Shown: positions 1-15,762, numbered from the stretch's first letter. The stretch: 64,000 nucleotides of DNA from a bacterium (GCA_030429765.1 JAUIER010000003.1:144402-208401); one strand, 5' to 3'. Made by a program: numbers and translations. Notes: a model not told the origin generated them from the sequence alone.

Positions 1-269
1 AACTCAACTGGAGTGAACATCTGCCGGCCAATGCCACGCCGCTGCGGATCGGGGGCGATACCGCCATGACAGCCGCCAAGCCGGATGCCGTCGGGGGGAT
101 TGACTTCACCGGTGATCGGCTGAATATCCAGCTCAAACGCGACGCCGACGGAATCCCGCTGCCCATGCCCGTCCAACCCTTACGTCATATCCAGATCGAC
201 GGTCTCGTGCCTGTCATTCTCGACATCCGACCGATTAACGTGTTACCATTGTTTGTGGCTAGGGAGTAG
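1..269 (+). CDS. 3' end of a gene that starts upstream of the window; C-terminal ~60 aa homologous to C-terminus of the giant ORF (40908-52103)
   Basis: Frame 3 is open from nt 3 to TAG at 267-269 (LNWSEHLPANATPLRIGGDTAMTAAKPDAVGGIDFTGDRLNIQLKRDADGIPLPMPVQPLRHIQIDGLVPVILDIRPINVLPLFVARE*). High GC, like the core genome. The tail aligns with the giant protein tail ...DPVGGINFDADLIDLEIRGDHAPIELPFNPDQLQQLRIDGFSPVIIQIAPVTNLPLL. Confidence 0.55.
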   Translation, partial: LNWSEHLPANATPLRIGGDTAMTAAKPDAVGGIDFTGDRLNIQLKRDADGIPLPMPVQPLRHIQIDGLVPVILDIRPINVLPLFVARE

Positions 270-373
270 ATTAGCGGGTCGGATGTGGGGAGTAGCGAAA
301 AGATATTTTTTAGAGAAGTTTAAATTACGGGCCAGGCGGAGTCGCGTTGGTGCGAGAGAACGGTAAGAAGGAC

Positions 374-424
374 GGAGTCGCTTTGAAGCTAGCGACTCCT
401 GCCCGCGATTACTTCGTAATCGCG
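374..424. repeat. Two adjacent perfect hairpins (GGAGTCGCT-8nt-AGCGACTCC and CGCGATTA-5nt-TAATCGCG), part of a cassette-boundary repeat
   Basis: Reverse-complement stems read directly at 374-382/391-399 and 404-411/417-424. No T-tract follows, so this is not a typical intrinsic terminator. Confidence 0.6.
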
Positions 425-461
425 TTAGTGTCAGAACTCCCTAAGGTATAGCAGGGCATAA
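425..461. repeat. Boundary repeat family 'TT(A/G)GTGTCAGAACT(C/A)CC...' copy 1
   Basis: ttagtgtcagaactccctaaggtatagcagggcataa is ~80% identical to 2412-2454 (ttggtgtcagaactacccaaagtacagtattgcaggagtataa). The shorter core 'cctgcccgcga...ttggtgtcag' recurs at 1525-1583 and 1741-1763. Confidence 0.55.
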
Positions 462-499
462 ATTTAGGTCGTAATTCATTATATTAGCGAAGAGGCCTG

Positions 500-545
500 T
501 CCCAGTTTGACCGTTTATGATTAGCCGGCAAGCTGGGGCTGACCC
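500..545 (+). repeat. 46-nt direct repeat (copy 1 of 2; other copy 2938-2983) spanning 17 nt of 5' leader plus the first 10 codons (MISRQ[A/I]GADP)
   Basis: tcccagtttgaccgtttatgattagccggcaaGCtggggctgaccc vs tcccagtttgaccgtttatgattagccggcaaATtggggctgaccc: 44/46 identical. Confidence 0.8.
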
Positions 546-855
546 GTTCCCCGGAATGGTTATATACAATCAATGTGAGTTTGAAGAAACGCAAGATTTC
601 TGCTGGCACGTTAAAGAAGATAATCTGCCTAAACAAGGTGTCTATGAGTTGGCGAAATTATTGAATAAGTATCAACTTCTAGACATAGATATGATTACAT
701 TAAGCAGGCAGGAGTTGCTGGATAAATACAATATCGAGTTTTCCAAAGATCTAAATATAGATGAATTTAATCCCATTGTTGATGAATTAGAGTCAATTGA
801 AGTTGCTATGGTTGATGATATAGAGGAAGGAGATAGTTATTTTATTCATGAGTAA
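517..855 (+). CDS. hypothetical acidic protein (112 aa) with MISRQAGADP N-terminus, in the low-GC island
   Basis: ORF track. Start lies inside the 46-nt repeat. Its stop overlaps the start of the next ORF (ATGAGTAA at 848-855). Confidence 0.45.
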   Translation: MISRQAGADPFPGMVIYNQCEFEETQDFCWHVKEDNLPKQGVYELAKLLNKYQLLDIDMITLSRQELLDKYNIEFSKDLNIDEFNPIVDELESIEVAMVDDIEEGDSYFIHE

Positions 856-1132
856 TCTATACACTTGCCCCTGTTGCGGATATAAGACGTTGAATGAAAA
901 AGCTGGTGGAACATTTGAAATTTGCCCAGTTTGTTTTTGGGAAGATGATCCTGAGCAATTTGAGGATCCCGAATATGTTGGTGGTGCGAATGGGGGCGTC
1001 TCATTGAGGCAAGCACAGAAAAACTTTCTTGAACTTGGTGCCTGTTCAGAAGATATGGTAGACAAGGTAAGAAAGCCTAAAGATTATGACAAGAAAGATC
1101 CAAATTTTAAGTTGATTGGAGAGCCTGAATGA
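848..1132 (+). CDS. cysteine-rich CPCC-family small protein
   Basis: CPCCGYKTLNE...ICPVCFWEDDPEQ...YVGGANGGVSLRQAQ matches the CPCC-domain signature (recognised from memory). Translationally coupled to the preceding ORF. Confidence 0.55.
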   Translation: MSNLYTCPCCGYKTLNEKAGGTFEICPVCFWEDDPEQFEDPEYVGGANGGVSLRQAQKNFLELGACSEDMVDKVRKPKDYDKKDPNFKLIGEPE

Positions 1133-1179
1133 ATTATTGGGACGAAATTCATAGGGTTTAAATAGATTTTGCTCGTTTC

Positions 1180-1425
1180 TTAGTCTTCGGATTCCTTATG
1201 CTGCATAATATTAAAGTAAAGTCTTTTGTTTCGCATAATAACAACCCCGGGTAAAAACCATACGGTTAATACATCAATTGTAAATTCCTTAAAACCTGTG
1301 AATAGCTGAAAAAGTATTCCCGTAACAATCATCGCAACAATGATATGTGACATAAAGATTCCGTGGGATTCGCCTCCCGGAGGTACATTGAGTAATCGAT
1401 CGAGGCATCTCTTACAGAAATCCAA
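1180..1425 (-). CDS. hypothetical small membrane protein (81 aa)
   Basis: ORF track only. One hydrophobic segment (IIVAMIVTGILFQLF). Low-GC island. No homology recognised. Confidence 0.25.
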   Translation of the reverse strand: MDFCKRCLDRLLNVPPGGESHGIFMSHIIVAMIVTGILFQLFTGFKEFTIDVLTVWFLPGVVIMRNKRLYFNIMQHKESED

Positions 1426-1524
1426 AAACCAACCTGTAAGGACCCTAGTTAAGCAAGAATATTTTTGTGTAGATCGAGTTTATTGTTAATTTAGTTTTGA
1501 TGGAAGCTCCGGGGGGGGTACACC

Positions 1525-1583
1525 GAGTCGATCTGAAGCCCGCGGATCCTGCCCGCGACAGCATTTAAAAAAATTGGTGTCAG
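1525..1583. repeat. Boundary repeat family copy (gagtcgatctgaagcccgcggatcctgcccgcgacagcatttaaaaaaattggtgtcag)
   Basis: Aligns with 366-433 (gagtcgctttgaagctagcgactcctgcccgcgatta...ttagtgtcag). Confidence 0.5.
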
Positions 1584-1740
1584 GGTAAATTCAAGTAGCT
1601 AGTGCGAAGTGGGCTTTTGAGATTAATCCAGAATGGAAAAAGGCGGAGGATATATTAAAAATTGCTCAACAGAAAAATAATTTTTAGTAAAGATTATATG
1701 CTGAAGAAGAGGTTTAGATGTTCTGTGATCGCGACAACCT

Positions 1741-1763
1741 GTGGCAGTCGCATTGGTGTCAGG
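1741..1763. repeat. Boundary repeat family, short copy ending in ttggtgtcag
   Basis: gtggcagtcgcattggtgtcag shares the 10-nt core TTGGTGTCAG with 1574-1583 and 2412-2421. Confidence 0.35.
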
Positions 1764-1806
1764 ATCCTTTAAAGAGCAGGGACGCATATGTTAAGAAGGA
1801 GTAATA

Positions 1807-2277
1807 ATGGAGTCTATTGAAGCTATTTCCACGATAATAAAAGAAAATGATGAAATTTCAGACTTTTGTTTGCCTGTAGAGGTGAAAGTAATTTATGAGG
1901 CTGAGAAGGAACTTAATGTGCTACTACCAAATGATTACAGAGAGTTTCTATTAAGATTTGGTTGTGGCAATTTGGGTTCACAAGAAGTTTATGGTGTAGG
2001 GATAAAGCCAGTTGGTATACCTAGTGTCATATGGGCAACTAAAGAACAACGACTACATGAACCAAACTTTCCTCATGAGTATATCCTATTCCATAATAGT
2101 GGTTGTGGAGGTGGGCACTGTTTAGATACCTCAAGGATTTCCGGAGATGTTTGTCCTATAGTACGTTGGGAAATTGGCTGTAATGATAAGTTGCAAGCCG
2201 AAACAATTTCTGATTCTTTTTCGCAATTTATACTTAAAATATTTAAGGATGAACTACAAGGTCGGAATGATGATTAG
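1807..2277 (+). CDS. SMI1/KNR4 (SUKH superfamily) protein, immunity-protein type
   Basis: LPNDYREFLLRFGCGNLG...EYILFHNSG is the SMI1/KNR4 core signature. RBS-like AAGGAG sits 6 nt upstream of the ATG. Confidence 0.7.
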   Translation: MESIEAISTIIKENDEISDFCLPVEVKVIYEAEKELNVLLPNDYREFLLRFGCGNLGSQEVYGVGIKPVGIPSVIWATKEQRLHEPNFPHEYILFHNSGCGGGHCLDTSRISGDVCPIVRWEIGCNDKLQAETISDSFSQFILKIFKDELQGRNDD

Positions 2278-2411
2278 TGACAAATATCAATATTAAATAT
2301 TAGCTAAAAGTAGGATTGGAGAAGTCAAGACCTGCCAGTCAAATATCTAGTAATTGTTAGTATATCTGCAACGAATGCATACTAGTTTTTAAAATATTCC
2401 GTGAATATTAA

Positions 2412-2454
2412 TTGGTGTCAGAACTACCCAAAGTACAGTATTGCAGGAGTATAA
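2412..2454. repeat. Boundary repeat family copy
   Basis: See 425-461. Confidence 0.55.
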
Positions 2455-2849
2455 GCCGAAATACATTCGATAAAACGAAACTACTGTCCCTATTCGGGGG
2501 CTGTCCCGTTACTATTATGCTACCCAAATATTTATTTTATGTTGATGTAGAAGTATCTGCTGGTAAGGGGAATGAGAAAATGCCCGAAGAGTTACTGGGG
2601 GCGTATGTGAATTGTTATACTTTTGCAATCAATAAGGATGAAGCCATATTGAAAGTTAGAGGGTGTTTAGAAGAAGATAACTATAATATAATCAGCATTA
2701 ATGATTGCTATAGAGCAGATTTAGATCAATTTTCCATCGACTATGATGAGTCAACTGGAGAGCCCACGAAAAGAGATATCGAAGAAATACGAGAGTCATC
2801 TGGCGTGTTTTATGCAAATTTCTTTGGGTATGAAAAGGACGAGCAGTGA
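2412..2849 (+). CDS. hypothetical protein (145 aa), cassette ORF
   Basis: ORF track. Begins inside boundary repeat copy 2412-2454. Low GC. Confidence 0.4.
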   Translation: MVSELPKVQYCRSISRNTFDKTKLLSLFGGCPVTIMLPKYLFYVDVEVSAGKGNEKMPEELLGAYVNCYTFAINKDEAILKVRGCLEEDNYNIISINDCYRADLDQFSIDYDESTGEPTKRDIEEIRESSGVFYANFFGYEKDEQ

Positions 2850-2937
2850 TCGTTGGTGAAAACTAAAGACAAAGACTCATAAAATACGGCAACAATCAAG
2901 TTTGGAGCGTAATCCAGTTGATAGCAAATAAGACGTA

Positions 2938-2983
2938 TCCCAGTTTGACCGTTTATGATTAGCCGGCAAATTGGGGCTGACCC
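2938..2983 (+). repeat. 46-nt direct repeat copy 2
   Basis: See 500-545. Confidence 0.8.
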
Positions 2984-3917
2984 AGTAGATTACATTTTAC
3001 CTATGCAGAAAATTAATATACTTATTCAAAAATATGAATTCAATGATGAAGCCTTGATTAAGGAAATCGTCCTACTGGTGCCTAGTCAAGATTTGGTAGA
3101 GCGAATCAATGAATGTTTTCAGAAAGAGAGTGTTTACGATAAGCAAGGTGGACTTATTGAACTTATCCAAGACATTCTTTGTTGCCGAAACGGTTGGGTG
3201 ACGCAACGTTATTCCAACAATTTCCGTCGAACTTTGGATGCATCTTCATTTCCGAATATCCTAAATCAAAAAATAATTACCCATGAAAATCGGATCAATT
3301 ATCACCTGACTAGTTTCTTCAAATATAGTAATAAGAGGTATCTCCCGATATTGCAAAGAGCTTACAAGCATGCATTAAAATATGATCCTTTAGAAGTATC
3401 TATGATTGTGGGAGAAATGTACTGGTTATCCAAGGAGTTTAATTGGAATATAATCAAGAATTTGAGTCGAAGTCAGGATTTTCTGCATCGATGGGCAATA
3501 CTAGACATTTTCGGTGCTATATCCATCAACAGGGATGAGCAATATGAAAAAAAGAAATTGGGTATATTACGCCAGTTGCGAAATGATCCAAATCCGTTTA
3601 TCGCTCAAGAAGCCTCATGGCTCATTTCTGAAAGTCGGTATGTCCAGGCGTATAATAAGGGAATGCCAAAAAGTAAACCAGCAACCATAAATTATAAAAA
3701 GAAGATGCGTCTATACAGTAAGGCAAAGGCAGAAGTCGAACTTAGCTATACTTTTGGGGAAATAAAGGCAAAATACAGCCGCCTCCGAAAATATTTTCCA
3801 GAGACATTTGCTGTTCGTAACGTAATCGAAGGAATACTAATGTTTGGTTGGCAGAAATCGGTTATAGATAAAGATTATGATAAATGGTTAGCGGTGAAAA
3901 TCAAAGATACCATATAG
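2955..3917 (+). CDS. hypothetical protein (320 aa) with MISRQIGADP N-terminus
   Basis: ORF track. N-terminus encoded by the 46-nt repeat. No domain recognised. Confidence 0.5.
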   Translation: MISRQIGADPVDYILPMQKINILIQKYEFNDEALIKEIVLLVPSQDLVERINECFQKESVYDKQGGLIELIQDILCCRNGWVTQRYSNNFRRTLDASSFPNILNQKIITHENRINYHLTSFFKYSNKRYLPILQRAYKHALKYDPLEVSMIVGEMYWLSKEFNWNIIKNLSRSQDFLHRWAILDIFGAISINRDEQYEKKKLGILRQLRNDPNPFIAQEASWLISESRYVQAYNKGMPKSKPATINYKKKMRLYSKAKAEVELSYTFGEIKAKYSRLRKYFPETFAVRNVIEGILMFGWQKSVIDKDYDKWLAVKIKDTI

Positions 3918-3948
3918 GGCAATCGAAATGCTACGAACATTTTTTTTC

Positions 3949-4278
3949 TTACTTTTGATTTAACTTATTGAAGCAATTGTTACATACAATACGACATTCT
4001 TCGCTCAGGGATAGGCCATGGATTTCAATAGATTGACCATTTGCATTAAGTTCGGTTTCCAAATAATACTCTCCCGAAGGGAGTGGAGAAAAGCAGGCTT
4101 CACAAATTTCTGGAAACAGGTTTTTACACCAATCTTTACGGGTTTTGAAGCAAATGCTACAAACATAAAGATATGAGATAGTTTTTCTTGCATTGGTAAC
4201 TTCTGAAAATTGCCAAAAATTCACGGCAGTTAAATTTCCGCATATATCTGTATTCTTTCCACATTGTTCACAGTTCAT
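3949..4278 (-). CDS. hypothetical cysteine-rich protein (109 aa)
   Basis: Many CxxC pairs (CEQCGK, CSIC, CEAC, CNNC). Low-GC island. Weak RBS. Confidence 0.35.
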   Translation of the reverse strand: MNCEQCGKNTDICGNLTAVNFWQFSEVTNARKTISYLYVCSICFKTRKDWCKNLFPEICEACFSPLPSGEYYLETELNANGQSIEIHGLSLSEECRIVCNNCFNKLNQK

Positions 4279-4419
4279 TTTTTGAAGTGTATAAGATTTA
4301 TTTGAGGACCTATTATATCATCAAATTTGGTATTACTACTAATCAGCATGATGAAAATAGTCAATCTCTGGGGACTATTCAGTATTCCCCACCCCCCAAA
4401 TTTGTGCTATAATCCCGGC

Positions 4420-4722
4420 ATGGCTGAACGATTTGTACGGGTTTTCTCTAAATTGGATCTCTCCAAGATCACCCCGCAATTATTGATTTACGGTGATATT
4501 TCCGGGACGTGCGCCGGATGTCAGAAGATCGACATCAAGCTCAATCAGCCGGTGTGTCCCGAGTGCAAGAGCGAGTTCAAATTCATCGCCTTTCGCAATA
4601 TCCGGGCCCATTTACCCAAATTACAGCAGTTATCCGCGCAGCGGCCGAGTGTCACGATCATCGATTACGATGATTACAAGCGTGAACTCAGCGCGTCGAA
4701 GGCCGCGGATTTTTTTAAATAG
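4420..4722 (+). CDS. hypothetical zinc-ribbon protein (~100 aa)
   Basis: CAGCQK...CPECK zinc-ribbon pattern. GC rises at the internal ATG 4420 (MAERFVRV...), so that is taken as the start. Confidence 0.45.
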   Translation: MAERFVRVFSKLDLSKITPQLLIYGDISGTCAGCQKIDIKLNQPVCPECKSEFKFIAFRNIRAHLPKLQQLSAQRPSVTIIDYDDYKRELSASKAADFFK

Positions 4723-4764
4723 GATCCATTCCCCGCGAGTGGCCGAACCCCACAGGAGCTTACC

Positions 4765-5907
4765 GTGATCAACAAAGACCGTCTCATCAAGCTAACCCAA
4801 AAACTCATTCGCTTTGATTCATCCAACCCGCCGGGGCTGGAATACGAATGCGCCAAGTTTATCGAAAAGGATATGCGGTCGCTGGGGCTCGAGGTTAAGA
4901 CGGTGAGTTACGCTCCCAAGCGTCCGAATGTGATCGCCACGTTAAAGGGAACACTGCCGCGCGCCCAGGCTAAAAAGGAAGCGATTCTGCTGACACCGCA
5001 TTTCGATACCGTACCGGTAGGCAGCGGATGGAAGTACAAGCCATTTGGCGGCGAGATCGTCGGCGGCAAGATCTATGGACGCGGGACGAGTGATGATAAA
5101 GGCAACACGGCGGCGTGTATGGAGGTGATGCGATCGCTGGTCGAAGACGGGGTCCGTCTGAAAAAAGATGTGATCATGGCCGCGACGGTGGATGAGGAGA
5201 CCGGATCGCAGATGGGGATCATTCCATTGCTGGATAAAAAAGTCCTCACACCCAAATTCGCGCTGGTGGTGGACTCCACGGAATTCGACGCGATGATCGT
5301 GCAGAAAGGTGTTCTGCAGTTTCGCGTCCAGATCTTCGGTAAAAAAGCACACAGTGCCTATAACTGGCGCGGTGACAGCGCGATCGAAACCGCGGCGCGA
5401 TGTATCAATCGCCTCAAGAAAATCAAATTTCCACACAAAAAACACAAACTCTTACATGCCCCGTCGTTGAATGTCGGTGTGATAAACGGGGGTGACAAGG
5501 TCAATATGGTCGCGGACCTCTGCGAGTTTACCGTGGATCATCGTTTCTGTCCGGGGACGAATTATCGCGAACCGCTCAAATTGATCAAAGAGACCCTGGC
5601 CAAAGAGACCAAGAAATTCAAGATCATCCTCGATGATATCCAGCAGCCGTATGAGATCAAGGCCGATCATCCGTACGTGAAGACCTTTCTGGATGTCAAC
5701 AAACGGATGAAGGCGCCGGCGGGGATTAAAGGCAGTGAAGGCGCGACCGTGATCACCTTTTTTCAAAAGCACAAGATTCCGGCATTTGCCACCGGCTGGG
5801 GCGCGCATGGCACGCTGCATGCCAATGACGAACACATCTACATCAAATCGCTATATAAGGGAACGCAGGTGTTGGAGGCGTACGTCAAGGAATACGATCA
5901 GCTGTAG
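4765..5907 (+). CDS. M20-family metallopeptidase (ArgE/DapE-type deacylase)
   Basis: DSSNPPG...TPHFDTVP...GRGTSDDKG and DEETG metal-binding motifs. GTG start with AGGAG 7 nt upstream. Confidence 0.85.
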   Translation: MINKDRLIKLTQKLIRFDSSNPPGLEYECAKFIEKDMRSLGLEVKTVSYAPKRPNVIATLKGTLPRAQAKKEAILLTPHFDTVPVGSGWKYKPFGGEIVGGKIYGRGTSDDKGNTAACMEVMRSLVEDGVRLKKDVIMAATVDEETGSQMGIIPLLDKKVLTPKFALVVDSTEFDAMIVQKGVLQFRVQIFGKKAHSAYNWRGDSAIETAARCINRLKKIKFPHKKHKLLHAPSLNVGVINGGDKVNMVADLCEFTVDHRFCPGTNYREPLKLIKETLAKETKKFKIILDDIQQPYEIKADHPYVKTFLDVNKRMKAPAGIKGSEGATVITFFQKHKIPAFATGWGAHGTLHANDEHIYIKSLYKGTQVLEAYVKEYDQL

Positions 5908-6003
5908 ACCGATGATCGGGGTTATAAAAAATCCCGATCTTTGTAATATTCGGGCGTGTGAATTTGTGGTAGCCTAGTAAAAACTCTAAGGAAAGGCGAT
6001 ATT

Positions 6004-6924
6004 ATGGACTTAAAGGGCGAAGTCGTATTTTCATCCGGACGGCACGGAGATTATGATATCTGGTCGATCAACATGGAGAGCAAACAGGTCTCGCAGTTGA
6101 CCGAGGGATCCACCAAGAATGATTATCCGCGCTGGTCGCCGGACGGATCACAGATCGTGTATATTTCTCATCAGACCGAAGTGCCGGAGATCTGGGTGAT
6201 GGAGGCCAACGGAGACAATCCGCGGCAGGTCACCAAGAAGAACAAATGGCACGCCTCACCGTCATGGTCGCCGGACGGGCAACGCCTGGTGTTCTGCGCC
6301 AATTACGACGCGAATTTTGATGTGTACACCATCAAACTGGATGGATCGGATCTGCAGCGCGTGACCGATCATGAGGGATCGGATTTCACGCCCGAGTTTT
6401 CGCCGGACGGCAAGTCGATCGTCTACACCTCGCAGCAGGCCGGTAATGATGATATCTGGATCTTTGATATCGAATCCGGCAAATCCCGTCAGATCACCGA
6501 ATACACGGGCCGGGACTACAGCCCGACATTTTCGCCCGACGGTAAAATTCTCGCCTATGTCTCCGGGGATATCAACAAAGACGGCTCTGAGAATCTGGAG
6601 ATCTTCACGCTGGAGTTTGATACCAATACCACCTATCAGGTCACCAAAAATCCCGGCGCCGACCGTTTTGTGCGCTGGTCGCCTGACGGTAAATATCTGG
6701 TGTACTGCGGGGCCAAGGGATCGGGGCCGGAACGGCTGACCGTCCTGGAATATGAATCCGGCAAGTACAAGCAGGTGGATTTTGACCGCACCAAACTGGA
6801 CTTCGAAATGGAGGTCAAACCCAGCGGATTCGGTTTGTTCTCGTTGCTGCCGGAAAGTATCCGCCGCAAATTTTATCCCGACGATTATTTCGGTAATGAG
6901 CGCTATCCCGACTGGAAATATTAA
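6004..6924 (+). CDS. PD40/WD40-like beta-propeller repeat protein (TolB-like repeats, no signal peptide)
   Basis: Repeated W/F-SPDG motifs (RWSPDGSQIVY, SWSPDGQRLVF, FSPDGKSIVY, FSPDGKILAY, RWSPDGKYLVY). Confidence 0.8.
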   Translation: MDLKGEVVFSSGRHGDYDIWSINMESKQVSQLTEGSTKNDYPRWSPDGSQIVYISHQTEVPEIWVMEANGDNPRQVTKKNKWHASPSWSPDGQRLVFCANYDANFDVYTIKLDGSDLQRVTDHEGSDFTPEFSPDGKSIVYTSQQAGNDDIWIFDIESGKSRQITEYTGRDYSPTFSPDGKILAYVSGDINKDGSENLEIFTLEFDTNTTYQVTKNPGADRFVRWSPDGKYLVYCGAKGSGPERLTVLEYESGKYKQVDFDRTKLDFEMEVKPSGFGLFSLLPESIRRKFYPDDYFGNERYPDWKY

Positions 6925-6935
6925 TTCCTGTCCCT

Positions 6936-7628
6936 ATGTATCGAAGCATTGATTCCATCAAGATCATCAGCACGATCGCCATCCTCGATGAGCGCATCCG
7001 CAAGCGTTTCCCCAATTCCGGGCTGTCACGTGTCAGCCGTGAGCTGCTGCAGGTGGGGCGCGAGGCCAAGTTCAAAAGCGAGGCGATCTGCAAACCCAAT
7101 CTGTATCTGCGGTTTTTTGCGACCATCGCGATTCTGATCATTATCGTCGGGCTGCACGTCAGTCTGGCGCAGGTTCCGCTGGCCCATGACCACTTGAGCG
7201 TGGCCGAGTTTATCCAGGTGCTGGAGGCCGGCCTCAATGATATCGTGCTGATTGGCGCGGCCATCTTTTTTGTGGTGACATTTGAAACGCGCATCAAGCG
7301 CGAGAAATGCCTGCAGCTGCTGCACGAACTGCGGGTACTGGCCCACGTGGTTGACATGCATCAGCTGTCCAAGGATCCCGACAAGATGCTTGGAAATCCC
7401 GACGATTACACTTACCCGCCCGGTGAACGTCTCAATAGCTTTCAACTCAACCGCTATCTGGACTATTGTTCGGAGATGCTGTCGATGATCGGCAAGCTCG
7501 CCGCGCTGTACGTCCAGAATTTCAGTGATCCGGTGGTGATCGCAGCGGTCAATGAAATCGAGACCCTGACCACTGGATTGTCCCGCAAGATCTGGCAGAA
7601 AATCATGATCCTGCACACATACAAGTAA
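6936..7628 (+). CDS. hypothetical membrane protein
   Basis: Hydrophobic segments and normal composition. The overlapping antisense ORF 7026-7637 has antisense-type composition. Confidence 0.45.
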   Translation: MYRSIDSIKIISTIAILDERIRKRFPNSGLSRVSRELLQVGREAKFKSEAICKPNLYLRFFATIAILIIIVGLHVSLAQVPLAHDHLSVAEFIQVLEAGLNDIVLIGAAIFFVVTFETRIKREKCLQLLHELRVLAHVVDMHQLSKDPDKMLGNPDDYTYPPGERLNSFQLNRYLDYCSEMLSMIGKLAALYVQNFSDPVVIAAVNEIETLTTGLSRKIWQKIMILHTYK

Positions 7629-7714
7629 TCCAACCAAGATTTTGACTTCTCATCTAAATTGTGGTTGAATAGAGGCTTCCATGGAGGCTCTCCTAATCTC
7701 TACGAGGAATGGTT

Positions 7715-8893
7715 ATGAAATATCCAGATAAAAACGGACATTTTGGTGAATTCGGCGGACGCTTTCTGCCGGAAACGCTGATTGCGTTGCATGACGAGCT
7801 CGAAGGCGTGTTTAAGTCCGCCCTCAAGGATCCCCAATTCAAAAAAGAGTTTCAATATTATCTCAATGAATACGCCGGCCGGCCGACCAAGCTGTATTAC
7901 GCGGAGCGCCTAAGCCAGCGGCTGAAGACGCTCAAGGTGTACCTCAAGCGGGAGGACCTGCTGCACACCGGCGCGCATAAGATCAACAACACGCTCGGTC
8001 AGATTTTATTGGCCAAGCGCATGGGCAAGACGCGCATTATTGCCGAGACCGGGGCGGGCCAGCACGGGGTAGCCACGGCGACGGCGGCGGCCCTAATGGG
8101 GCTGGAATGCGTGATCTACATGGGTGAGGAAGATACCCGTCGTCAATCACTGAATGTGTTCCGGATGAAATTGCTCGGCGCCCAGGTGGTGCCGGTCACC
8201 AGCGGTTCAAGGACACTCAAAGACGCGATGAATGAAGCGATACGCGATTGGGTGACAAACGTCGACAAAACATTTTATATCATCGGATCGGTGGCCGGCG
8301 CGCATCCGTATCCGCTCATCGTCCGTGAATTTCAGGCGGTGATCGGACGCGAAGCCCGGCGACAGTTTCTCAAGGCCGAAAACAAGCTGCCGAATTATCT
8401 GATTGCCTGCGTGGGCGGCGGCAGCAACGCGATGGGATTGTTTCACGCCTTCTATAAAGATAAATCAGTCAAGATGATCGGCGTCGAAGCGGCCGGTCAT
8501 GGGCTCAACACCGTCGAGCATTCCGCGCCGTTAGCCAAAGGAAAGATCGGTGTGCTGCACGGCAGTAAGAGTGATTTGCTGCAGACCGAGGATGGACAGA
8601 TCCAGGTCGCGCATTCGGTCGCGGCGGGACTGGATTACCCGGGCGTCGGGCCGGAACATTCGTTTTACAAGAAATCCGGACGGGCCGAATATGTGGCGGT
8701 TGAAGATCGCGAGGCCATTAAAGGGCTCAAGCTTTTATCCGAGACCGAAGGGATTATCCCCGCGCTGGAAACCGCGCATGTGTTCGCGTATCTTCCCAAG
8801 CTCGCGCGCAAACTCAAACGTCAGCAATCGATCATTGTCTGTCTGTCAGGCCGCGGCGATAAAGACATGGAACAAATCAAAGAATTAATTTAG
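7715..8893 (+). CDS. trpB: tryptophan synthase beta chain
   Basis: [12 protein letters not shown]-lysine motif, GGGSNA. GAGGA 6 nt upstream of ATG 7715. Confidence 0.95.
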
Positions 8894-8927
8894 GACGAAG
8901 TTTTCGTCATAACCGACAGGTGCATTT

Positions 8928-9722
8928 ATGAACCGAATTGATCAGACGTTCAGCCGATTGAAACAGGATAAACGAAAGGCGTTTATCGCGTACATCACCG
9001 CGGGCGATCCCGATCTTAAGACCACCGAGCAATTGGCGCTGGCGCTGGAACAGTCAGGGGTCGATATCCTGGAACTCGGCGTGCCGTTTTCCGATCCGTT
9101 GGCCGACGGGCCGACCATTCAGGCGGCATCACAGCGCGCGCTGGCCGCGGGGACAACCTTGCCCAAGGTCCTGGATCTCGTCAAAAAGATCCGCCGGACG
9201 TCCAACATGCCGCTGGCGCTGATGATGTATTACAATCAGATTCACAGCTACGGTGAGCAAAAGTTTGTGAAGATGGTCGCCGATTGCGGTGTCGACGGGT
9301 TGATCGTTCCGGATCTTCCCCCGGAAGAGGCCACGGATTTGATCAAATATGCCAAGGCCCATGATGTGTCGACGGTATTTTTTATGGCGCCGACCACCAA
9401 GCCCGAGCGCATGACCAAGATTGCCCGGCATTCCACCGGCTTCATCTATTATGTGTCACTGACCGGGGTGACCGGCGCGCGTCAGGCCATTCCGTCATCG
9501 GTGACCCGCAAGATTCGCGAGGCCAAAAAGATTACCGACAAGCCGATCTGTATCGGATTCGGTATCTCAACCCCTGAGCAGATCCGCACGATGAAAAAGG
9601 TGGCGGATGGTGTGATTGTGGGAAGCGCGATCATCAATCAGATCGTCAAACATGCCGGTCAAAGCGACCTGGTGCCCAAGGTGTCCAAGTTTGTCCGGAC
9701 GTTGAGTCGCGCGCTGGATTAA
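8928..9722 (+). CDS. trpA: tryptophan synthase alpha chain
   Basis: ILELGVPFSDPLADGPTIQ and GFGIS motifs. Directly downstream of trpB. Confidence 0.93.
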   Translation: MNRIDQTFSRLKQDKRKAFIAYITAGDPDLKTTEQLALALEQSGVDILELGVPFSDPLADGPTIQAASQRALAAGTTLPKVLDLVKKIRRTSNMPLALMMYYNQIHSYGEQKFVKMVADCGVDGLIVPDLPPEEATDLIKYAKAHDVSTVFFMAPTTKPERMTKIARHSTGFIYYVSLTGVTGARQAIPSSVTRKIREAKKITDKPICIGFGISTPEQIRTMKKVADGVIVGSAIINQIVKHAGQSDLVPKVSKFVRTLSRALD

Positions 9723-9767
9723 ATCAAATTCCCATCAAACCCAGATTTCAGAAACGGAAAATTATTT

Positions 9768-11042
9768 ATGCAAAAAATAGAACGACTCAGTAACGGATTA
9801 CGGATTATCACGCAGAGTATGAAGGACCGCGAGAGCGCGTCGATCGGGATCTGGGTTGGTGTCGGCGGACGTTACGAAGATGACCGGGTCAAAGGCGCCA
9901 CGCATTTTTTGGAACATATCGTCTTTAAGGGCAGCGAGAAATACACCTGCGAGTCGATCAAGGAGAGTATAGAAGGCGTCGGCGGAACGCTCAACGCGTT
10001 TACATCGGAAGAGCAGACCTGCTTTTACGCCAAGATTCCCGCGGCGCATATCAACAAGACATTTGATGTGCTGGCGGATATGGTCTTTTTTCCCAATATC
10101 AAGGCGTCGGATGTCCGCAAAGAACGCACGGTGATCATTGAAGAGATCAAGATGTACCATGACCTGCCGCAGTATTTTGTGCTGGAACTCCTTGATGGAT
10201 TGATCTGGCCTGATCATCCGTTGGGCAAACAGCTGGCCGGGACCATTGATTCGGTGTCGGGGCTCAGTTCCAAGGATCTCAAGCGGTTTCATCATTCGTA
10301 CTACCGGCCGGGTAATATCGCGATATCGGCCTGCGGAAAGATCGATCATGACGCGTTTGTGCGGATGGCCAAACGCAAGCTCGGCAAGATCAAGTCGGAC
10401 GGCGAATTCAATTATCTGCCGATCACCGGTCTGCAGTCCAAGGCGCGGGTGAATTTTTACCGCAAGGACATCGAGCAGATGCATCTGGCGCTGGGCATGC
10501 CCGGTTACGACGAGAATCATCCCGATCGGCACACGCTGGGGTTGCTGAGCATCATCATGGGCGGGAATATGTCGTCGCGGCTGTTTGAAGAGGTGCGGGA
10601 AAAGAAGGGATTGGCCTACTCAATCGGGACCTTGCATAAAACAATGCACGATACCGGCGTGTTTATGGTACGCGCGGGTGTGGATAATCAAAAGATTGTC
10701 AGCGCGGTGGGGTTGATCCTCAAGGAATTCCGTAAGATCCGCAAAAACGGTGTGACGGCCGGCGAATTCAAGCGCGCCAAGGACTATATGCTCGGACAAA
10801 TCCTGCTGGGACTGGAAGATTCGATGGAGCACATGCTCTGGTTAGGCGAATCCATGATCGCCCGCGACCGCGGCCGCAGCATCAAGGATGTGATCAAGGC
10901 GCTCAATAAGATCAAAATTGCGGATATTCAGCGCGTGGCGCGCGATATTCTCGATGAAAAACGCTATAATCTGGCGATTGTCGGGCCGGTAACTGACCAG
11001 CAGGACACAGAGTTACGCAAATTGCTCGATGCGACGGTTTAA
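9768..11042 (+). CDS. M16-family zinc peptidase (pitrilysin-like)
   Basis: HFLEHIVFKG inverted zinc-binding motif (HxxEH). Confidence 0.88.
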   Translation: MQKIERLSNGLRIITQSMKDRESASIGIWVGVGGRYEDDRVKGATHFLEHIVFKGSEKYTCESIKESIEGVGGTLNAFTSEEQTCFYAKIPAAHINKTFDVLADMVFFPNIKASDVRKERTVIIEEIKMYHDLPQYFVLELLDGLIWPDHPLGKQLAGTIDSVSGLSSKDLKRFHHSYYRPGNIAISACGKIDHDAFVRMAKRKLGKIKSDGEFNYLPITGLQSKARVNFYRKDIEQMHLALGMPGYDENHPDRHTLGLLSIIMGGNMSSRLFEEVREKKGLAYSIGTLHKTMHDTGVFMVRAGVDNQKIVSAVGLILKEFRKIRKNGVTAGEFKRAKDYMLGQILLGLEDSMEHMLWLGESMIARDRGRSIKDVIKALNKIKIADIQRVARDILDEKRYNLAIVGPVTDQQDTELRKLLDATV

Positions 11043-11124
11043 GCCCCAATTTACAATTGACAACGGAATCCATATCCGTTAGACTCAAAATAACTCTAAT
11101 CATCTTGAACAAGAAGGAGAACCA

Positions 11125-11298
11125 ATGGCCGAAGAATTATCATTTTACGATGTAAAAACCAAGTCAAAATTCAATTCTTCTGATTACGAAGTCCGTGAAA
11201 AGAGCGGACGCTTTTTTGCTGTCACTAAATCTCCTCAAGGAACTCACGAATGCTGGCGAGTTCTGGGTAAAGATCAAGCTGCAAAATTAAAGAAATAA
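11125..11298 (+). CDS. small hypothetical protein (57 aa), not in the ORF track
   Basis: ATG 11125 has AAGGAG 7 nt upstream. Translation MAEELSFYDVKTKSKFNSSDYEVREKSGRFFAVTKSPQGTHECWRVLGKDQAAKLKK, stop TAA 11296-11298. Confidence 0.4.
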   Translation: MAEELSFYDVKTKSKFNSSDYEVREKSGRFFAVTKSPQGTHECWRVLGKDQAAKLKK

Positions 11299-11491
11299 GC
11301 CCTCAAATGCCTCTTTGCGCGGGACATCATCTTCGCATGGATGGCTTTCGACATAGGCCTGAATACGCCGAAATTACGTTTCAAGAAGGAATCCTGCTAT
11401 AAAAAAAGTTTCACTTACTTCTAGAACCATTGCCAAGAAAATTGCAGAATTCGCAGATGATAAGAAAGCGATCGATATCGTCGTCCTGGAC

Positions 11492-11779
11492 ATGCGTCAG
11501 CTTGTCAATTTCTGCGACTATTTTGTCGTTTGTTCCGGAAACACCGACCGGCAGGTCAAGGCGATTGCCGACGGGATAGACGAAGGTTTATACGGACTGG
11601 GTATCAAGCTGGGATCCAAAAACGCGGTCAAGCAATCCGACTGGGTTGTATTTGACACCGGGGATATTGTGATTCACGTGTTTGCCAAAAAGACACGTGA
11701 ATTTTACAATCTGGAGTACCTGTGGCAGGATGCCAAACCGGTCAAGTGGCGGAAGGAACCGCGCACACCGTCCGACTAA
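11492..11779 (+). CDS. rsfS: ribosomal silencing factor RsfS (Iojap); true start probably upstream at a non-canonical codon
   Basis: CSGNTDRQVKAIADGI...DWVVFDTGDIVIHVF matches RsfS. The in-frame region 11357-11491 encodes RsfS-like N-terminal sequence (..KKAIDIVVLDMRQL) but has no ATG/GTG/TTG. Confidence 0.8.
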   Translation: MRQLVNFCDYFVVCSGNTDRQVKAIADGIDEGLYGLGIKLGSKNAVKQSDWVVFDTGDIVIHVFAKKTREFYNLEYLWQDAKPVKWRKEPRTPSD

Positions 11780-11870
11780 AACCTCGGAACCAAATTTTTA
11801 AATCGTATTATGGTCGCAAGTGTCACATGCCCCGCTCTGCAGGCGGATGTGTACGCTTGTGATTTTTTAT

Positions 11871-13598
11871 ATGTTATCGACCTACAAAGACAACATTCAG
11901 GAATTCATCCAATCGACGCTTCAGGCGTCGTTTCCCGACGTGGCCGAATGGCCGGCCATTGAACTCGAGGTGCCGGCGGACAAAAAGCACGGACATTTTT
12001 CGTGCAATATCGCACTGCGTTGCGCCAAACCGCTTCGCAAGGCCCCGCCGGTGATCGCCGCGGATTTTGTCGGCGCGCTGGAACAGGCCCTCAACGGATC
12101 TAATCTCAACCACATTATTGACAAGATCGAGGTCAAGAATCCCGGATTCATCAACTTTTTTCTGACCAGTCAGTCACTCACTGCGACGATCGCTGAGATT
12201 TATGCGCAGGGGGAGGCGTTTGGTCAGGTTGATATCGGTCAGGGACGCAAGATCGGAATTGAGTTTGTCAGCGCTAATCCGACCGGACCGTTAAGCATCG
12301 CGCACGCGCGACAAGCGGCGGTGGGAGACGCGCTTGGAAATATCCTCAAGGCCATCGGATTTGACGTGACCAAAGAATACTACGTCAATGACGGCGGCAA
12401 TCAGATCCGTATGCTCGGTCAGTCACTGAAACTGCGAATGCTGGAGATGGTCCAGCCGGATACGGAGTTTCCCGAGGATTGCTATCAAGGCGAATACATG
12501 AAGGATATCGCGCGGGGGGTGTTTGAGTTTAAAGATCAGGTCACCGAGAAGACGCTCGCCGAGCTCAGCGATTGCCAGGCGGATATTTCCGCGTTTGACA
12601 CAGATTTTGTGAACGGCTATTCGGATGAGCAGTTTCAGGATTGGTCCAAGTCGTTGATCATGGACGATATCAAAAAAGACCTGGCGGATTTCAATGTGCA
12701 TTTTGATGTGTGGTCCCTGGAGTCTGAGGTCGCCTCACCGGAAAAGATCGTGGGATTGATCGAACGTCTCACGGCGGACGGGTATCTCTACGAAAAAGAC
12801 GGCGCGTTATGGTTTAAATCAACAGACTTCGGCGACGACAAGGATCGGGTGATCCGTAAATCAGACAGCACATATACGTATCTAACGCCGGACATTGTGT
12901 ACCATAAAAACAAATTTGAGCGCGGGTTTGATCAGGTGATCGATATTCTCGGCCCGGACCATCACGGATACATCGCGCGGATCAAGGCGTCGGCGCAGGC
13001 GCTGGGACGGCAGGCCGATGACCTGCAGGTCTTGATTGTGCAGTTAGCGACCATTTTCCGCGACGGGCAGGCTGTGTCGATGTCGACACGCCGCGGGCAG
13101 TATGTGAGCCTGCGGGAGATCCTCGACGAGGTCGGGGCCGACGTGGCCCGCTATTTCTTCCTGATGCGTCATATCAAGGCCCATCTGGAATTTGATCTGG
13201 AACTGGCCAAGAAAGAATCCTCGGAGAATCCGGTGTATTACATTCAGTATGCGTACGCCCGGATTAACAGTATCAACAAGAAGGCGTCGGAATCTGAGAT
13301 CGACTTGGAACGTCAGGATTTTTCCCGATTGTCGACCGAAGAAGAGCTGGATCTGGCCAAGCAGTTGGGTGGATACAGCGACGCGTTGGCGTATTGCCAT
13401 CAGCAATTGGATCCGTATCCGCTGGTCAATTATCTATTCGAGCTGGCCACGGTGTTTCACAAATTTTATGACCGGCAGCGTGTCATCGACAGCGACACGC
13501 AGTTGTCCGCGCAGCGGCTGGGGCTGGTCAATGCCGTCAAGACCGTGTTAGGGAACGGATTGGCTTTGCTGGGAATCAGCCGGCCGGACTCGATGTAG
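11871..13598 (+). CDS. argS: arginine--tRNA ligase
   Basis: SANPTGPLSIAHARQA (HIGH-type region) and MSTRRG (KMSKS-equivalent typical of ArgRS). Start moved to MLSTYKDNIQEF. Confidence 0.92.
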   Translation: MLSTYKDNIQEFIQSTLQASFPDVAEWPAIELEVPADKKHGHFSCNIALRCAKPLRKAPPVIAADFVGALEQALNGSNLNHIIDKIEVKNPGFINFFLTSQSLTATIAEIYAQGEAFGQVDIGQGRKIGIEFVSANPTGPLSIAHARQAAVGDALGNILKAIGFDVTKEYYVNDGGNQIRMLGQSLKLRMLEMVQPDTEFPEDCYQGEYMKDIARGVFEFKDQVTEKTLAELSDCQADISAFDTDFVNGYSDEQFQDWSKSLIMDDIKKDLADFNVHFDVWSLESEVASPEKIVGLIERLTADGYLYEKDGALWFKSTDFGDDKDRVIRKSDSTYTYLTPDIVYHKNKFERGFDQVIDILGPDHHGYIARIKASAQALGRQADDLQVLIVQLATIFRDGQAVSMSTRRGQYVSLREILDEVGADVARYFFLMRHIKAHLEFDLELAKKESSENPVYYIQYAYARINSINKKASESEIDLERQDFSRLSTEEELDLAKQLGGYSDALAYCHQQLDPYPLVNYLFELATVFHKFYDRQRVIDSDTQLSAQRLGLVNAVKTVLGNGLALLGISRPDSM

Positions 13599-13615
13599 TC
13601 AGGAGTTGCACGTTT

Positions 13616-15301
13616 ATGCAAAAAGAATGGGTTATCAAACTGCCACACCCAAGGAATCAAATCCTCCTCGCGGACGCCCTGAACGTCCATCCGATCATCG
13701 CCCAATTACTCGTTAATCGTTCCATTCAAGAAGTTGGCACCGCGCGGGATTTCCTCGCGCCTAGCCTGACATTGCTGCATGATCCGATGCGGTTTAAAGA
13801 TATGGCCAAGGCCGTCGACCGTATCCGTCAGGCGGCGTCTGAAAAGCAAAAAGTCCTGATCTTCGGGGATTATGATGTTGATGGCGTGACGTCATCGGTG
13901 ATCCTCAATAAAGTGCTGAAATCGATGGGCATTGACGTGGTACATCACATTCCGCATCGTATGACCGATGGCTACGGCCTCAATCACGACATTGCCGATG
14001 TGGCGCGGGAGCAGGGCGTGGCGTTGATTATCACGATTGATTGCGGTGTCACGGCGTTTGACGAGGTAGAGACGATTCGTAGTCAAGGGATTGATGTGAT
14101 CGTGATCGATCACCACGAACCGTCGGAGGGACGATTGCCGGACGCGACGGCGATTATCGATCCAAAACAGGCGGATTGTGATTATCCATTTAATGAATTG
14201 GCGTCGGTGGGCTTGGCGTATAAGCTGGCGCAGGTCTTGGCGCCCGAGATCTGTGATGAGGTGTTGGATTTTGTGGCGTTGGGAACCGTGGCGGATGTGG
14301 CGCCATTGGTCGATGAAAACCGGATATTAGTGAAGGCCGGACTCAAGCAGATCCTCAAGACCCGTAACAAGGGACTCAGGGCCTTGCTGCAGGCCACCAA
14401 GATGAAACGCAAACCCATCACACCGTTTCATATCGGTTTCGTGTTGGGGCCGCGGATCAATGCCGCCGGCCGGATGGATTCGGCGCTGACGGCCCTGAAT
14501 TTGTTCTTGTCCGACGACGAACGTGAGGCGTATTCGTTGGCCATGGAATTGGAGTCATATAATTACGACCGGCAGAAGATGCAGAACAATACCATTTCCG
14601 AGGCGATGGAGATCGTCGAGGCGCAAATCCAGCAGACCGATTCAAAGATCATTGTCCTGAATAAAGAAGGATGGCATAAAGGCGTGCTGGGGATTGTCGC
14701 ATCACGCCTGACCGATAAATACTATCGTCCGTCGGTGGTGATTTCAACGGAGAACGGAGTGGGTACGGCTTCATGCCGTTCAATTGACGGATTTCATATT
14801 CAGCAGGCCCTGGAGCAGTGTCAGGAGGTGCTGGAAAATTTCGGCGGACATGAGGGCGCGGCGGGGCTGACCATTCAGGAGAATCAAATTGATCCGTTTC
14901 GCAAAATGATCAATGATATCGCGCAGTCGACCTTAGAGATCAGAAAACTCACGCCCAAGATTTATATCGATTGCGAGATTCCGGTTAACCAGGTGGATCT
15001 GAGTTTGGCGAATACCGTCGAGCAGCTGCAACCCTTCGGGGAAGGGAACGCGGTGCCGGTTTTTTGTTCGCGACGATTGGTGGTTAAAAGCTATCCGCAG
15101 ATCCTGGGTAAGGGGACGCTGAAGTTTTGGGTGGAACGGGATGATCAGCCGATCTCAGCGATCGGATTTGGCATGGAGCGTTTTGCCGATATGATCAGTC
15201 CGGGGCGGCAGATTGATATGGCCTACGAGATCTCTATTGATGATTGGAACAAGGCGCCGGAAGCGCAGCTGCGGATCAAAGATATCAAAAGCAGTACATA
15301 A
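13616..15301 (+). CDS. recJ: single-stranded-DNA-specific exonuclease RecJ
   Basis: FGDYDVDGVTS DHH motif, GGHEGAAGL DHHA1 motif. Confidence 0.92.
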   Translation: MQKEWVIKLPHPRNQILLADALNVHPIIAQLLVNRSIQEVGTARDFLAPSLTLLHDPMRFKDMAKAVDRIRQAASEKQKVLIFGDYDVDGVTSSVILNKVLKSMGIDVVHHIPHRMTDGYGLNHDIADVAREQGVALIITIDCGVTAFDEVETIRSQGIDVIVIDHHEPSEGRLPDATAIIDPKQADCDYPFNELASVGLAYKLAQVLAPEICDEVLDFVALGTVADVAPLVDENRILVKAGLKQILKTRNKGLRALLQATKMKRKPITPFHIGFVLGPRINAAGRMDSALTALNLFLSDDEREAYSLAMELESYNYDRQKMQNNTISEAMEIVEAQIQQTDSKIIVLNKEGWHKGVLGIVASRLTDKYYRPSVVISTENGVGTASCRSIDGFHIQQALEQCQEVLENFGGHEGAAGLTIQENQIDPFRKMINDIAQSTLEIRKLTPKIYIDCEIPVNQVDLSLANTVEQLQPFGEGNAVPVFCSRRLVVKSYPQILGKGTLKFWVERDDQPISAIGFGMERFADMISPGRQIDMAYEISIDDWNKAPEAQLRIKDIKSST

Positions 15302-15303
15302 AA

Positions 15304-15340
15304 ATAGACACACCGTTTGAGGTGTGTCTAAATTTTATTT
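15304..15340. terminator. bidirectional intrinsic terminator between recJ (+) and rpmB (-)
   Basis: Perfect 9-bp stem AGACACACC-gtttga-GGTGTGTCT, flanked by A-run upstream and T-runs downstream. Confidence 0.65.
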
Positions 15341-15394
15341 TGCTGAAATGTAATGAAATTTTTAAGCGGGACGAATTCAGGTCAGGATCGACGA

Positions 15395-15622: not shown

Positions 15623-15762
15623 TTCCAAATCCTTTGCTAGTCTTACGTTTTGAATATAAGAGTATAATTAAAATCACAGGATTGTCAAGGTTAAATTTGC
15701 ATGGTGGGTTGATCGCCTAACATGCTCGTATATATAAGATTACATCCAAAAAGGAGATTCGC

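Follow-up and report, generated by a model that had tools for sequence, protein, structure and literature searches.

Direct repeats between the small genes of an AT-rich island: candidate recombination joints of a cassette array in a probably Omnitrophota-like bacterium

INTRODUCTION

What is the role of a short sequence that recurs, always in the same orientation, between the small genes of a bacterial genomic island? The question is raised by a stretch of 64,000 nucleotides of bacterial DNA (GCA_030429765.1, JAUIER010000003.1:144402-208401), which we call the window and whose coordinates are counted from its first letter. Close to its left end lies an AT-rich island (about 270-4400, + strand) with 36-38% GC against ~51% in the rest of the window. 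Within this island we find a repeated element composed of three parts, a variable left arm, a core that reads RTTGGTG and a right-arm box of ~30 nt. A preliminary description of the locus had reported a recurrent composite element with hairpins and had taken it for a cassette boundary or recombination site distinct from the attC sites of integrons. Here we propose that crossover takes place at the RTTGGTG core and that the repeats are recombination joints of cassette or att type, which have analogues in integrons and in rAID-1 (recombinase-associated acquired interbacterial defence) arrays and belong to neither family. We judge the chances of this proposal to be evenly balanced, and set out below the observations on which it is based, the points that weigh against it and the other explanations that the repeats may have.

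RESULTS

A core motif confined to the island and placed at gene boundaries

The repeats are non-random, restricted to the island, uniform in orientation and located at the boundaries of open reading frames (ORFs). The sequence TTGGTGTCAG is found exactly at 1574, 1753 and 2412, and TTAGTGTCAG, which has one mismatch, at 425, all on the + strand and within 2 kb. By our own arithmetic, an exact 10-mer is expected by chance in ~0.12 copies on both strands of the 64 kb (128,000 positions / 4^10). The motif has the consensus RTTGGTGTCAG, in which RTTGGTG is the core proper. The relaxed pattern RTTRGTGNNAR has eight matches in the 64 kb, where 2.8 are expected, and all eight are inside the island, in the first 4.2 kb: seven on the + strand (346, 424, 1573, 1752, 2273, 2411 and 2852) and one on the - strand (4123), the latter within an ORF. 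On the + strand of the island the heptamer RTTRGTG occurs eight times against 1.3 expected, a number not attained in any of 2000 Markov shuffles. When the four full boxes, each comprising the core and ~30 nt rightward, are combined into a profile, a search of the 64 kb recovers these four alone (E = 4e-8 to 5e-6), and no further box copies are present in the 60 kb of the window outside the island.

The individual cores, all on the + strand, are designated c0 to c5. The first, c0 (346-356), is the degenerate form GTTGGTGCGAG, detected by pattern matches, and opens a 78-nt unit devoid of an ORF. Core c1, GTTAGTGTCAG, and the right-arm box of c1/c4 type that follows it, AACTCCCTAAGGTATAGCAGGGCATAA, occupy 424-465 (profile E = 2e-7). 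Core c2, ATTGGTGTCAG, with a box of c2/c3 type (1573-1614), opens an ORF-less unit of 179 nt and coincides with, or lies within 6 nt of, the strain breakpoint described below. The same sequence, ATTGGTGTCAG, forms core c3, which together with its box (1752-1793) stands 44 nt 5' of the start codon of a SUKH gene endowed with an AAGGAG Shine-Dalgarno sequence. Core c4, once more ATTGGTGTCAG (2411-2421), is preceded by the 7-bp hairpin AATATTC cgt GAATATT (2393-2409) and followed by a c1/c4-type box, the entire element spanning 2393-2452 (E = 4e-8). The degenerate core c5, GTTGGTGAAAA (2852-2862), lies 2 nt past the stop codon of a 110-aa ORF. One more degenerate core, ATTAGTGACAA (2273-2283), is doubtful: it overlaps the tandem stops TAG-TGA of the SUKH gene and may be a by-product of these codons. 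Each core is situated between ORFs or at a stop codon, and three units (346-423, 1573-1751 and 2273-2410) contain no ORF. Units of this kind are familiar in cassette arrays and would be unexpected for promoters. The boxes are of two types, c1 resembling c4 (88% over 26 nt) and c2 resembling c3 (78% over 23 nt).

Over the whole window, RTTRGTG is present 24 times on the + strand and three times on the - strand. The + strand also carries 52 of the 54 ORFs of at least 100 aa, and the cumulative GC skew climbs monotonically.

Left arms are homologous in pairs and share exactly only the core

The left arms belong to two sequence types, each of which occurs twice. Type I (AAARATAWTTTTTAG...GGCRGTCGC) precedes c0 and c3; its first copy (AAGATATTTTTTAGAGAAGTTTAAAT ... 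GGCGGAGTCGC, 296-345, + strand) is homologous to the second (1668-1751, + strand), with 77-78% identity over 22-27 nt. Type II precedes c1 (372-423, + strand, ACGGAGTCGCTTTGAAGC...CCTGCCCGCGA...) and c2 (1522-1572, + strand) and corresponds to the composite element of the preliminary description, whose recurrence we confirm: in addition to the three exact cores and the near-exact one, 372-408 and 1522-1558 are 81% identical over 37 nt, and CCTGCCCGCGA is exact in both copies, with the core 15-16 nt further on.

The twin perfect hairpins that had been ascribed to the element are indeed present in its first copy (374-399 and 404-424). There GGAGTCGCT (374-382) pairs with AGCGACTCC (391-399) in a stem of 9 bp closed by an 8-nt loop, and CGCGATTAC (404-412) pairs with GTAATCGCG (416-424) across a 3-nt loop. 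The second stem also measures 9 bp, not the 8 bp originally given, and its final paired G doubles as the opening base of the core. When 326-440 is folded and compared with shuffles, z = -2.5. The second copy has lost its complementarity (z = -0.8) and the remaining copies fold no better than chance, so that the hairpins are not a shared property of the composite. A hairpin directly abutting the core terminates three of the seven left arms, at c1 (8-9 bp), c4 (7 bp) and c3 (5 bp, GCGAC at 1731-1735 and GTCGC at 1747-1751); scores equal to those of the c1 and c4 hairpins are reached at 0.7% and 1.7% of island positions, respectively.

The arrangement of the arms is nested. Type I with c0 is followed by type II with c1, a module of 1.15 kb (module A), type II with c2, the 179-nt ORF-less unit and finally type I with c3. 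The two left arms of a pair, though homologous, have no more than 75-81% identity, and the corresponding right arms are of different box types. The sequence exactly common to all partners is the core alone, 10-11 nt at most. The diverged left arms in combination with differing right arms argue for a crossover at the core between related, distinct sites and against a recent duplication. Equally, a core that is the sole exact shared sequence argues against homologous recombination across long identical repeats.

A strain breakpoint at core c2

Has an exchange at a core taken place in nature? An exact-protein look-up provided three Logan contigs from two public runs as a comparison set. Contig L003 (ERR3428548) is 100% identical to window 2940-15907 and contig L002 (SRR24442552) is 100% identical to window 1568-2969. 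The third, L001 (ERR3428548), matches window 1563-2969 with a single mismatch at the very junction, and its first 740 nt contain a GC-rich PMT-methyltransferase gene located after the end of a membrane-protein gene, both of which are absent from the window. The switch reads ...ATATTTCAAAAAA|TTGGTGTCAGGG in L001 versus ...GCATTTAAAAAAA|TTGGTGTCAGGG in the window, and the L001 breakpoint, AAAAAA|TTGGTGTCAG, is positioned at core c2 or no more than 6 nt to its left. There is no single-nucleotide polymorphism over 14.4 kb between the two arrangements, yet the left context of c2 differs, which points to a recent event whose breakpoint fell at the core or within 6 nt of it. The occurrence of two arrangements in genomes otherwise identical over 14 kb suggests that the system is currently active.

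The ends of the contigs provide further indications. L002 begins at 1568, where the two left contexts have their first k-mer in common, as would be expected from the behaviour of de Bruijn assembly if both arrangements coexist in SRR24442552. All three contigs break at a 32-nt exact leader repeat (500-531 = 2938-2969), which implies at least one further leader-bearing context in ERR3428548, though the proteins of module A are not on record there.

DISCUSSION

A model for cassette exchange at the core

Based on these observations, we propose that the island is a small, strain-variable array of horizontally acquired gene cassettes and that the repeats would be its joints. Cassettes would be gained, lost and exchanged by crossover at or next to the core, as in Campbell-type integration and excision of circles; a crossover of this type leaves the cores as direct repeats in a single orientation. 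A circle bearing a site would recombine with a related, non-identical chromosomal site, the crossover occurring at the core. After insertion, the recipient would have contributed the two outer arms, left at the left joint and right at the right joint, and the insert the two inner ones. A right-arm box would belong to the cassette downstream of it. The process would be site-specific rather than driven by microhomology. The enzyme would be a site-specific recombinase, presumably encoded outside the window, either in trans or beyond its left edge. The cargo may consist mainly of immunity genes; the SUKH gene is the only one of ~7 island ORFs that belongs to a recognised immunity family. An extended version of this model is more tentative, and we deem it rather improbable: the island would represent an undescribed integron-like cassette-capture system of an Omnitrophota-like bacterium, characterised by a variable, hairpin-bearing left arm, an RTTGGTG core and a cassette-specific right-arm box doubling as 5' leader, in which a non-adjacent recombinase gathers small immunity-type genes.

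A number of points weigh against recombination joints and have to be set beside the model. The evidence comes from a single locus, in which only four boxes are complete; c0, c5 and the match at 2273 share little past the heptamer and escape detection by the box profile. The exchange observed is a single event (N = 1). Left of the L001 junction the two sequences share the A-rich microhomology ATTT[C/A]AAAAAA, and the junction would also fit microhomology-mediated illegitimate recombination at the A-run; the presence of module B twice in one genome would yield the same junction. At c1, c4 and c5 homology runs from the core through a leader of 105-150 nt as far as the start codon, an extent more suggestive of a common 5' leader than of a site reduced to the needs of recombination. 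Domain searches of all ORFs of 100 aa or longer across the 64 kb detect no recombinase, integrase or transposase, and nothing recombinase-like is seen in the final 88 codons of the upstream gene that adjoins the head of the array. A simple tyrosine-recombinase site would show dyad symmetry; on inspection, neither dyad symmetry at the core nor Xer/dif-like symmetry around it is seen.

Furthermore, the patterns used revealed no additional copies in IMG/VR, in JGI metagenomes or in a set of representative genomes with one genome per GTDB species, the source genome not being one of them. Scanning the representative genomes with CCTGCCCGCGA-N10-20-TTRGTGTCAG yielded eight single chance matches in unrelated taxa, without a second motif, and scanning the metagenomes with GTGTCAGAACTNCCNAARGTA yielded four chance matches, none with a preceding TTRG. 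The viral scan was saturated with chance matches when a 14-base pattern was used; the core combined with GGGGCTGWCCC gave 33 chance matches, of which three contain the full core (two being one phage) without further similarity, and the leader-hairpin core gave no match. The loci of relatives (L137-L140, L174) are likewise devoid of the motif. The boundary or recombination role initially put forward therefore holds in part: the repeats do sit at the boundaries of cassette ORFs and one strain breakpoint falls at c2, but a recombinase is missing from the window ORFs of the size given above.

Right-arm boxes and a possible shared 5' regulatory leader

Could the repeats have a regulatory rather than a recombinational origin? 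Box and leader together might constitute a shared 5' regulatory region, a promoter and/or a 5' untranslated region with a translational-control hairpin, that travels with each gene, in which case the repeats would merely provide homology for occasional rearrangement. We regard this explanation as possible, although not probable. The long homology at c1, c4 and c5 is what it would lead one to expect, and every box is oriented along the ORFs. The leaders close with a C-run / G-run / C-run arrangement (CTGTCCC...GGGGCTGWCCC) 9-19 nt ahead of the ATG, and the c1, c4 and c5 cassettes have no AGGAG Shine-Dalgarno sequence, unlike the housekeeping genes of the window and the SUKH gene.

The leader ends in a second strongly conserved element, CCCAGTTTGACCGTTTATGATTAGCCGGCAAGCTGGGGCTGACCC, whose two copies on the + strand (501-545 and 2939-2983) are identical in 43 of 45 nt and form part of a longer repeat of 86 nt with 77% identity. 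Copy a (CCCAGTTTGACCG..CCGGCAAGCTGGG, then GGGGCTGACCC) lies ~10 nt 5' of the start codon at 556; copy b is the place where the assemblies of L001, L002 and L003 break. Each contains a 13-bp stem (501-534 and 2939-2972), and the two differences between the stems, G-C to G-U and U-G to U-A, both preserve pairing, on the + (sense) strand only. At c4 the leader is a shorter version, CTGTCCC-tattc-GGGGGCTGTCCC, with a short hairpin (CTGTCCC tattc GGGGGCTGTCCCGTT, 2484-2510, + strand) 9 nt 5' of the ATG at 2517.

Other findings speak against a regulatory origin. Behind the boxes at c0, c2 and 2273 comes a further core in place of an ORF. The boxes contain no consistent sigma-70 -35/-10 pair: 17 sites were counted in the region against 14.3 expected, and c5 is the only one of the cores to score. 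Since the scan is near expectation and ordinary TTGACA/TATAAT-like promoters are visible in the housekeeping intergenic regions of the window, a sigma-70 promoter in the box is not supported. Rfam 15 gives no match at gathering thresholds, and raising the limit to E = 5 gives only a spurious snoRNA inside the SUKH ORF; no covariation emerges from the three leader sequences. Moreover, a regulatory region leaves the strain breakpoint at c2 and the nested left arms unexplained. The two explanations are compatible, as the right arm of a cassette could serve both as leader and as part of a recombination joint.

Some coding features of this region deserve mention. An ATG in the loop of the 13-bp hairpin (517 in copy a) is in frame with both downstream ORFs, which would share the N-terminus MISRQ(A/I)GADP. 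The c1 and c4 boxes (425-451 and 2412-2438) display three differences spaced 3 nt apart that are synonymous in the frame (L/M)VSELPKV, the TTG of c4 is in frame with the 110-aa ORF over 35 stop-free codons, and c0 reads in frame into c1 as a 34-codon ORF (347-451). A peptide-coding origin of the boxes, suggestive as it may be, is inconsistent, for c1, c2, c3 and c5 meet stops within 4-14 codons, and it is further weakened by the fact that GGGGCTGWCCC falls in different frames.

A possible att origin of the cores at the methyltransferase gene

A variant of the recombination-joint model assigns the cores to an att site. Cis-mobilizable elements (CIMEs) are integrase-less elements flanked by att direct repeats, exemplified by those at the 3' end of fda in Streptococcus thermophilus. 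On this view the 3' end of the methyltransferase gene would have provided an att site, and the cores would be its copies, multiplied by tandem accretion of such elements; the integrase would be encoded beyond the GC-rich upstream gene, which would then count as cargo too. We consider this distinctly unlikely. The island has in common with CIMEs direct core repeats in one orientation, a position at a gene 3' end (the methyltransferase in L001), units without a recombinase of their own, and presumed deletion or insertion between cores. The core of the island is a candidate att sequence at most, and its units (78-1149 bp) are very small, whereas CIMEs are far larger than such 0.08-1.1 kb pieces.

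How does the methyltransferase gene bear on this possibility? Alignment with homologues indicates that the conserved region of the protein is complete down to its last residues (..RVVIFQK), and in L001 core and box supply the last nine codons and the stop of the gene (ATT GGT GTC AGG ... TAG). The resulting fused methyltransferase of 223 aa is also on record on a 76,330-nt NCBI contig, according to protein cluster tables. The tails of 120 methyltransferase homologues are variable, however, so that a native and an acquired core cannot be told apart from them. The methyltransferase loci of relatives (L137-L139, L174) carry neither island nor motif, and the array in the window follows a different gene. 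This upstream gene ends in a GC-rich 3' portion with its stop at 269, and the last 72 residues of its product share 50% identity with the C-terminus encoded by a DnaJ-domain ORF of 1047 aa in an Omnitrophica metagenome-assembled genome (MAG; locus L140). Its homologues are found in mobile contexts, at L140 and on a contig with an IS256-type transposase, in agreement with the notion that it is cargo.

Both contexts can be described more closely. Locus L140 (GCA_015232565.1, JADFZK010000032.1, 6982-13518) begins with a tRNA-Met gene (6982-7058), followed by the 1047-aa ORF and by two PIN-domain ORFs with repeated intergenic blocks of 52-70 nt, and the 3' end of the tRNA recurs, in direct orientation, at 11293-11313 and 13326-13357. 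The locus looks like a series of tandem integrase-less islands at a tRNA att site. The second, an ENA contig in ERZ1426815, encodes a 65-aa ORF 57% identical to the C-terminus of the upstream gene product and directly thereafter a Transposase_mut (IS256-type) gene. For the island itself a tRNA-derived att site is ruled out: a scan found neither tRNA nor tmRNA genes in the window, and on inspection the composite has no T-arm or acceptor features.

Comparison with integrons and other gene arrays

Is the island an integron by another name? In an attC site, inverted core pairs (RYYYAAC ... GTTRRRY) belong to an imperfect palindrome 57-141 nt in length. The island resembles integron arrays and clusters of attC sites lacking an integron integrase (CALINs) in its short, one-orientation cargo units bounded by a putative recombination core, some of them ORF-less, in the diversity of its sites, in the hairpin potential adjacent to the core and in a crossover that would leave hybrid sites. 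Its layout is cassette-like with short spacers, and three cores read GTTRGTG, which is near GTTRRRY. The integron rule of one orientation and mostly single ORFs describes the + ORFs (starting at 556, 848, 1807, 2517 and 3003), besides which there are two small - ORFs (1180-1425 and 3949-4278). Even so, a canonical integron cassette array, or a CALIN with diverged attC sites, is a highly improbable explanation. A regular-expression scan of both strands of 1-5000 for RYYYAAC/GTTRRRY pairs at 50-160 nt detected none, and all RTTRGTG cores are direct, without an inverted partner, which bears out the early claim that the element is not an attC site. There are no inverted R''/R' core pairs and no imperfect palindrome of attC length. 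The core reads RTTGGTG instead of GTTRRRY, and the conserved box stands on the 5' rather than the 3' side of each ORF. Short and variable from site to site, the hairpins are missing from about half the sites, and neither intI nor any other integrase gene is seen in the window.

Chance low-complexity similarity, ordinary terminators or palindromes akin to repetitive extragenic palindromic (REP) sequences have very little probability, for although the island is AT-rich, its weaker repeats (type I arm, c0, c5, 2273) are short and the hairpin at 374-399 is terminator-like on the - strand only, the motif counts, shuffles and box profile argue otherwise, the hairpins have no following T-runs on the + strand, the L001 breakpoint points to the core, and the 60 kb outside the island hold no copies, unlike REP sequences or miniature inverted-repeat transposable elements, families whose many copies are dispersed over a genome in both orientations.

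The recombination joints that we propose have partial counterparts in three further systems. The pdif modules of Acinetobacter plasmids are bounded by XerC/D sites of 28 bp with a dyad-like 11-6-11 organisation, usually in inverted pairs. They too are small cargo units between short sites, with the recombinase encoded elsewhere, but the cores of the island are all direct and have no dyad symmetry. The rAID-1 arrays of Bacteroidales possess an adjacent XerD-family recombinase, repetitive intergenic sequences "reminiscent of integrons", a GC content skewed relative to the host and a gene content that suggests active acquisition (Ross et al., bioRxiv 10.1101/471110). Compared by description, not by repeat sequence, the island shares with them small genes in the same orientation, immunity-type genes included, a skewed GC content and intergenic repeats. 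The XerD-family recombinase stands at the head of the rAID-1 array, whereas the head of the island adjoins a gene whose final 88 codons are not recombinase-like. In addition, rAID-1 is confined to Bacteroidales and its cargo is dominated by immunity genes, while here the flanking genes are nearest to Omnitrophota MAGs and the array is short, with one SUKH gene.

Polyimmunity loci are strain-variable tandem clusters that include SUKH genes and are sometimes found beside XerC/D recombinases, and extended loci of four or more genes were reported in Proteobacteria, Bacteroidetes, Firmicutes and Actinobacteria only (Zhang et al. 2012, PMC3482391). The island is similar in that a SUKH gene is part of a tandem cluster of small, same-orientation genes that differs between strains. 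It departs from these loci in the small share of its ORFs that match an immunity family, although the orphan ORFs may encode immunity proteins as well, and in its boundary repeats, which are not part of their description.

Genes of the island and its surroundings

The drop in GC content begins just past 270, and in 200-nt windows the island has a GC fraction of ~0.29-0.44 from ~600 to 4400. Module A contains a 99-aa orphan ORF without a family (556-855, + strand), a 94-aa CPCC protein (848-1132, + strand; PF14206, E = 2e-32) and a hydrophobic ORF of 81 aa (1180-1425, - strand). Exact look-ups of the CPCC protein and of the 99-aa ORF found none on record in the assembly collection. Next comes the SUKH/SMI1-KNR4 immunity-type protein of 156 aa (1807-2277, + strand; PF14567, SUKH_5/SMI1_KNR4, E = 1e-18). 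It is identical on L001 and L002 and, as listed in protein cluster tables, is present on a 254,838-nt NCBI contig that also encodes the 320-aa form of the last + strand ORF described below; searches with this protein and with the fragment of the upstream gene found no close homologues. The 110-aa orphan ORF, again without a family (2517-2849, + strand), is called as a gene on L001 and L002. An orphan ORF of 304 aa (3003-3917, + strand), or 320 aa if read from the ATG inside the repeat, has only a non-significant armadillo-repeat similarity, and a Cys-rich ORF of 109 aa (3949-4278, - strand) closes the series. Apart from the SUKH and CPCC proteins, the island ORFs have no match in Pfam, NCBIfam, PADLOC or the PDB.

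For the ORF given as 4327/4348-4722, the ATG at 4421 (MAERFV...) is the probable start; an extended -10-like sequence, TGCTATAAT, precedes it in the interval 4395-4423, and the island ends at about this point. From ~4421 rightward the flank consists of housekeeping genes for an M20 peptidase, a PD40 propeller, TrpB/TrpA, an M16 peptidase, RsfS, ArgS, RecJ and others. The best named relatives of the flanking proteins are proteins of Candidatus Omnitrophica/Omnitrophota MAGs, with 50-56% identity, and on the basis of these sequences the host is probably Omnitrophota-like. Further along the window a giant ORF of 3731 aa (40908-52103, + strand) has Cro/C1-type helix-turn-helix domains near residues 1454-1603 as its sole Pfam matches. 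At 59635-61206 two neighbouring PNP_UDP_1 phosphorylase paralogues, which share a stretch of 80 nt with 70% identity, represent a tandem gene duplication of the ordinary kind.

Implications

What would the array mean for the biology of its host? Most of what is known of cassette arrays that arise through site-specific recombination comes from integrons, to which the rAID-1 immunity arrays of gut Bacteroidales have been added more recently. If confirmed, the array described here would extend this way of amassing small protective genes to a different site architecture and to a candidate phylum that has received little study. In that event the RTTGGTGTCAG box would also offer a sequence handle by which such arrays, and their recombinase, could be sought in metagenomes.

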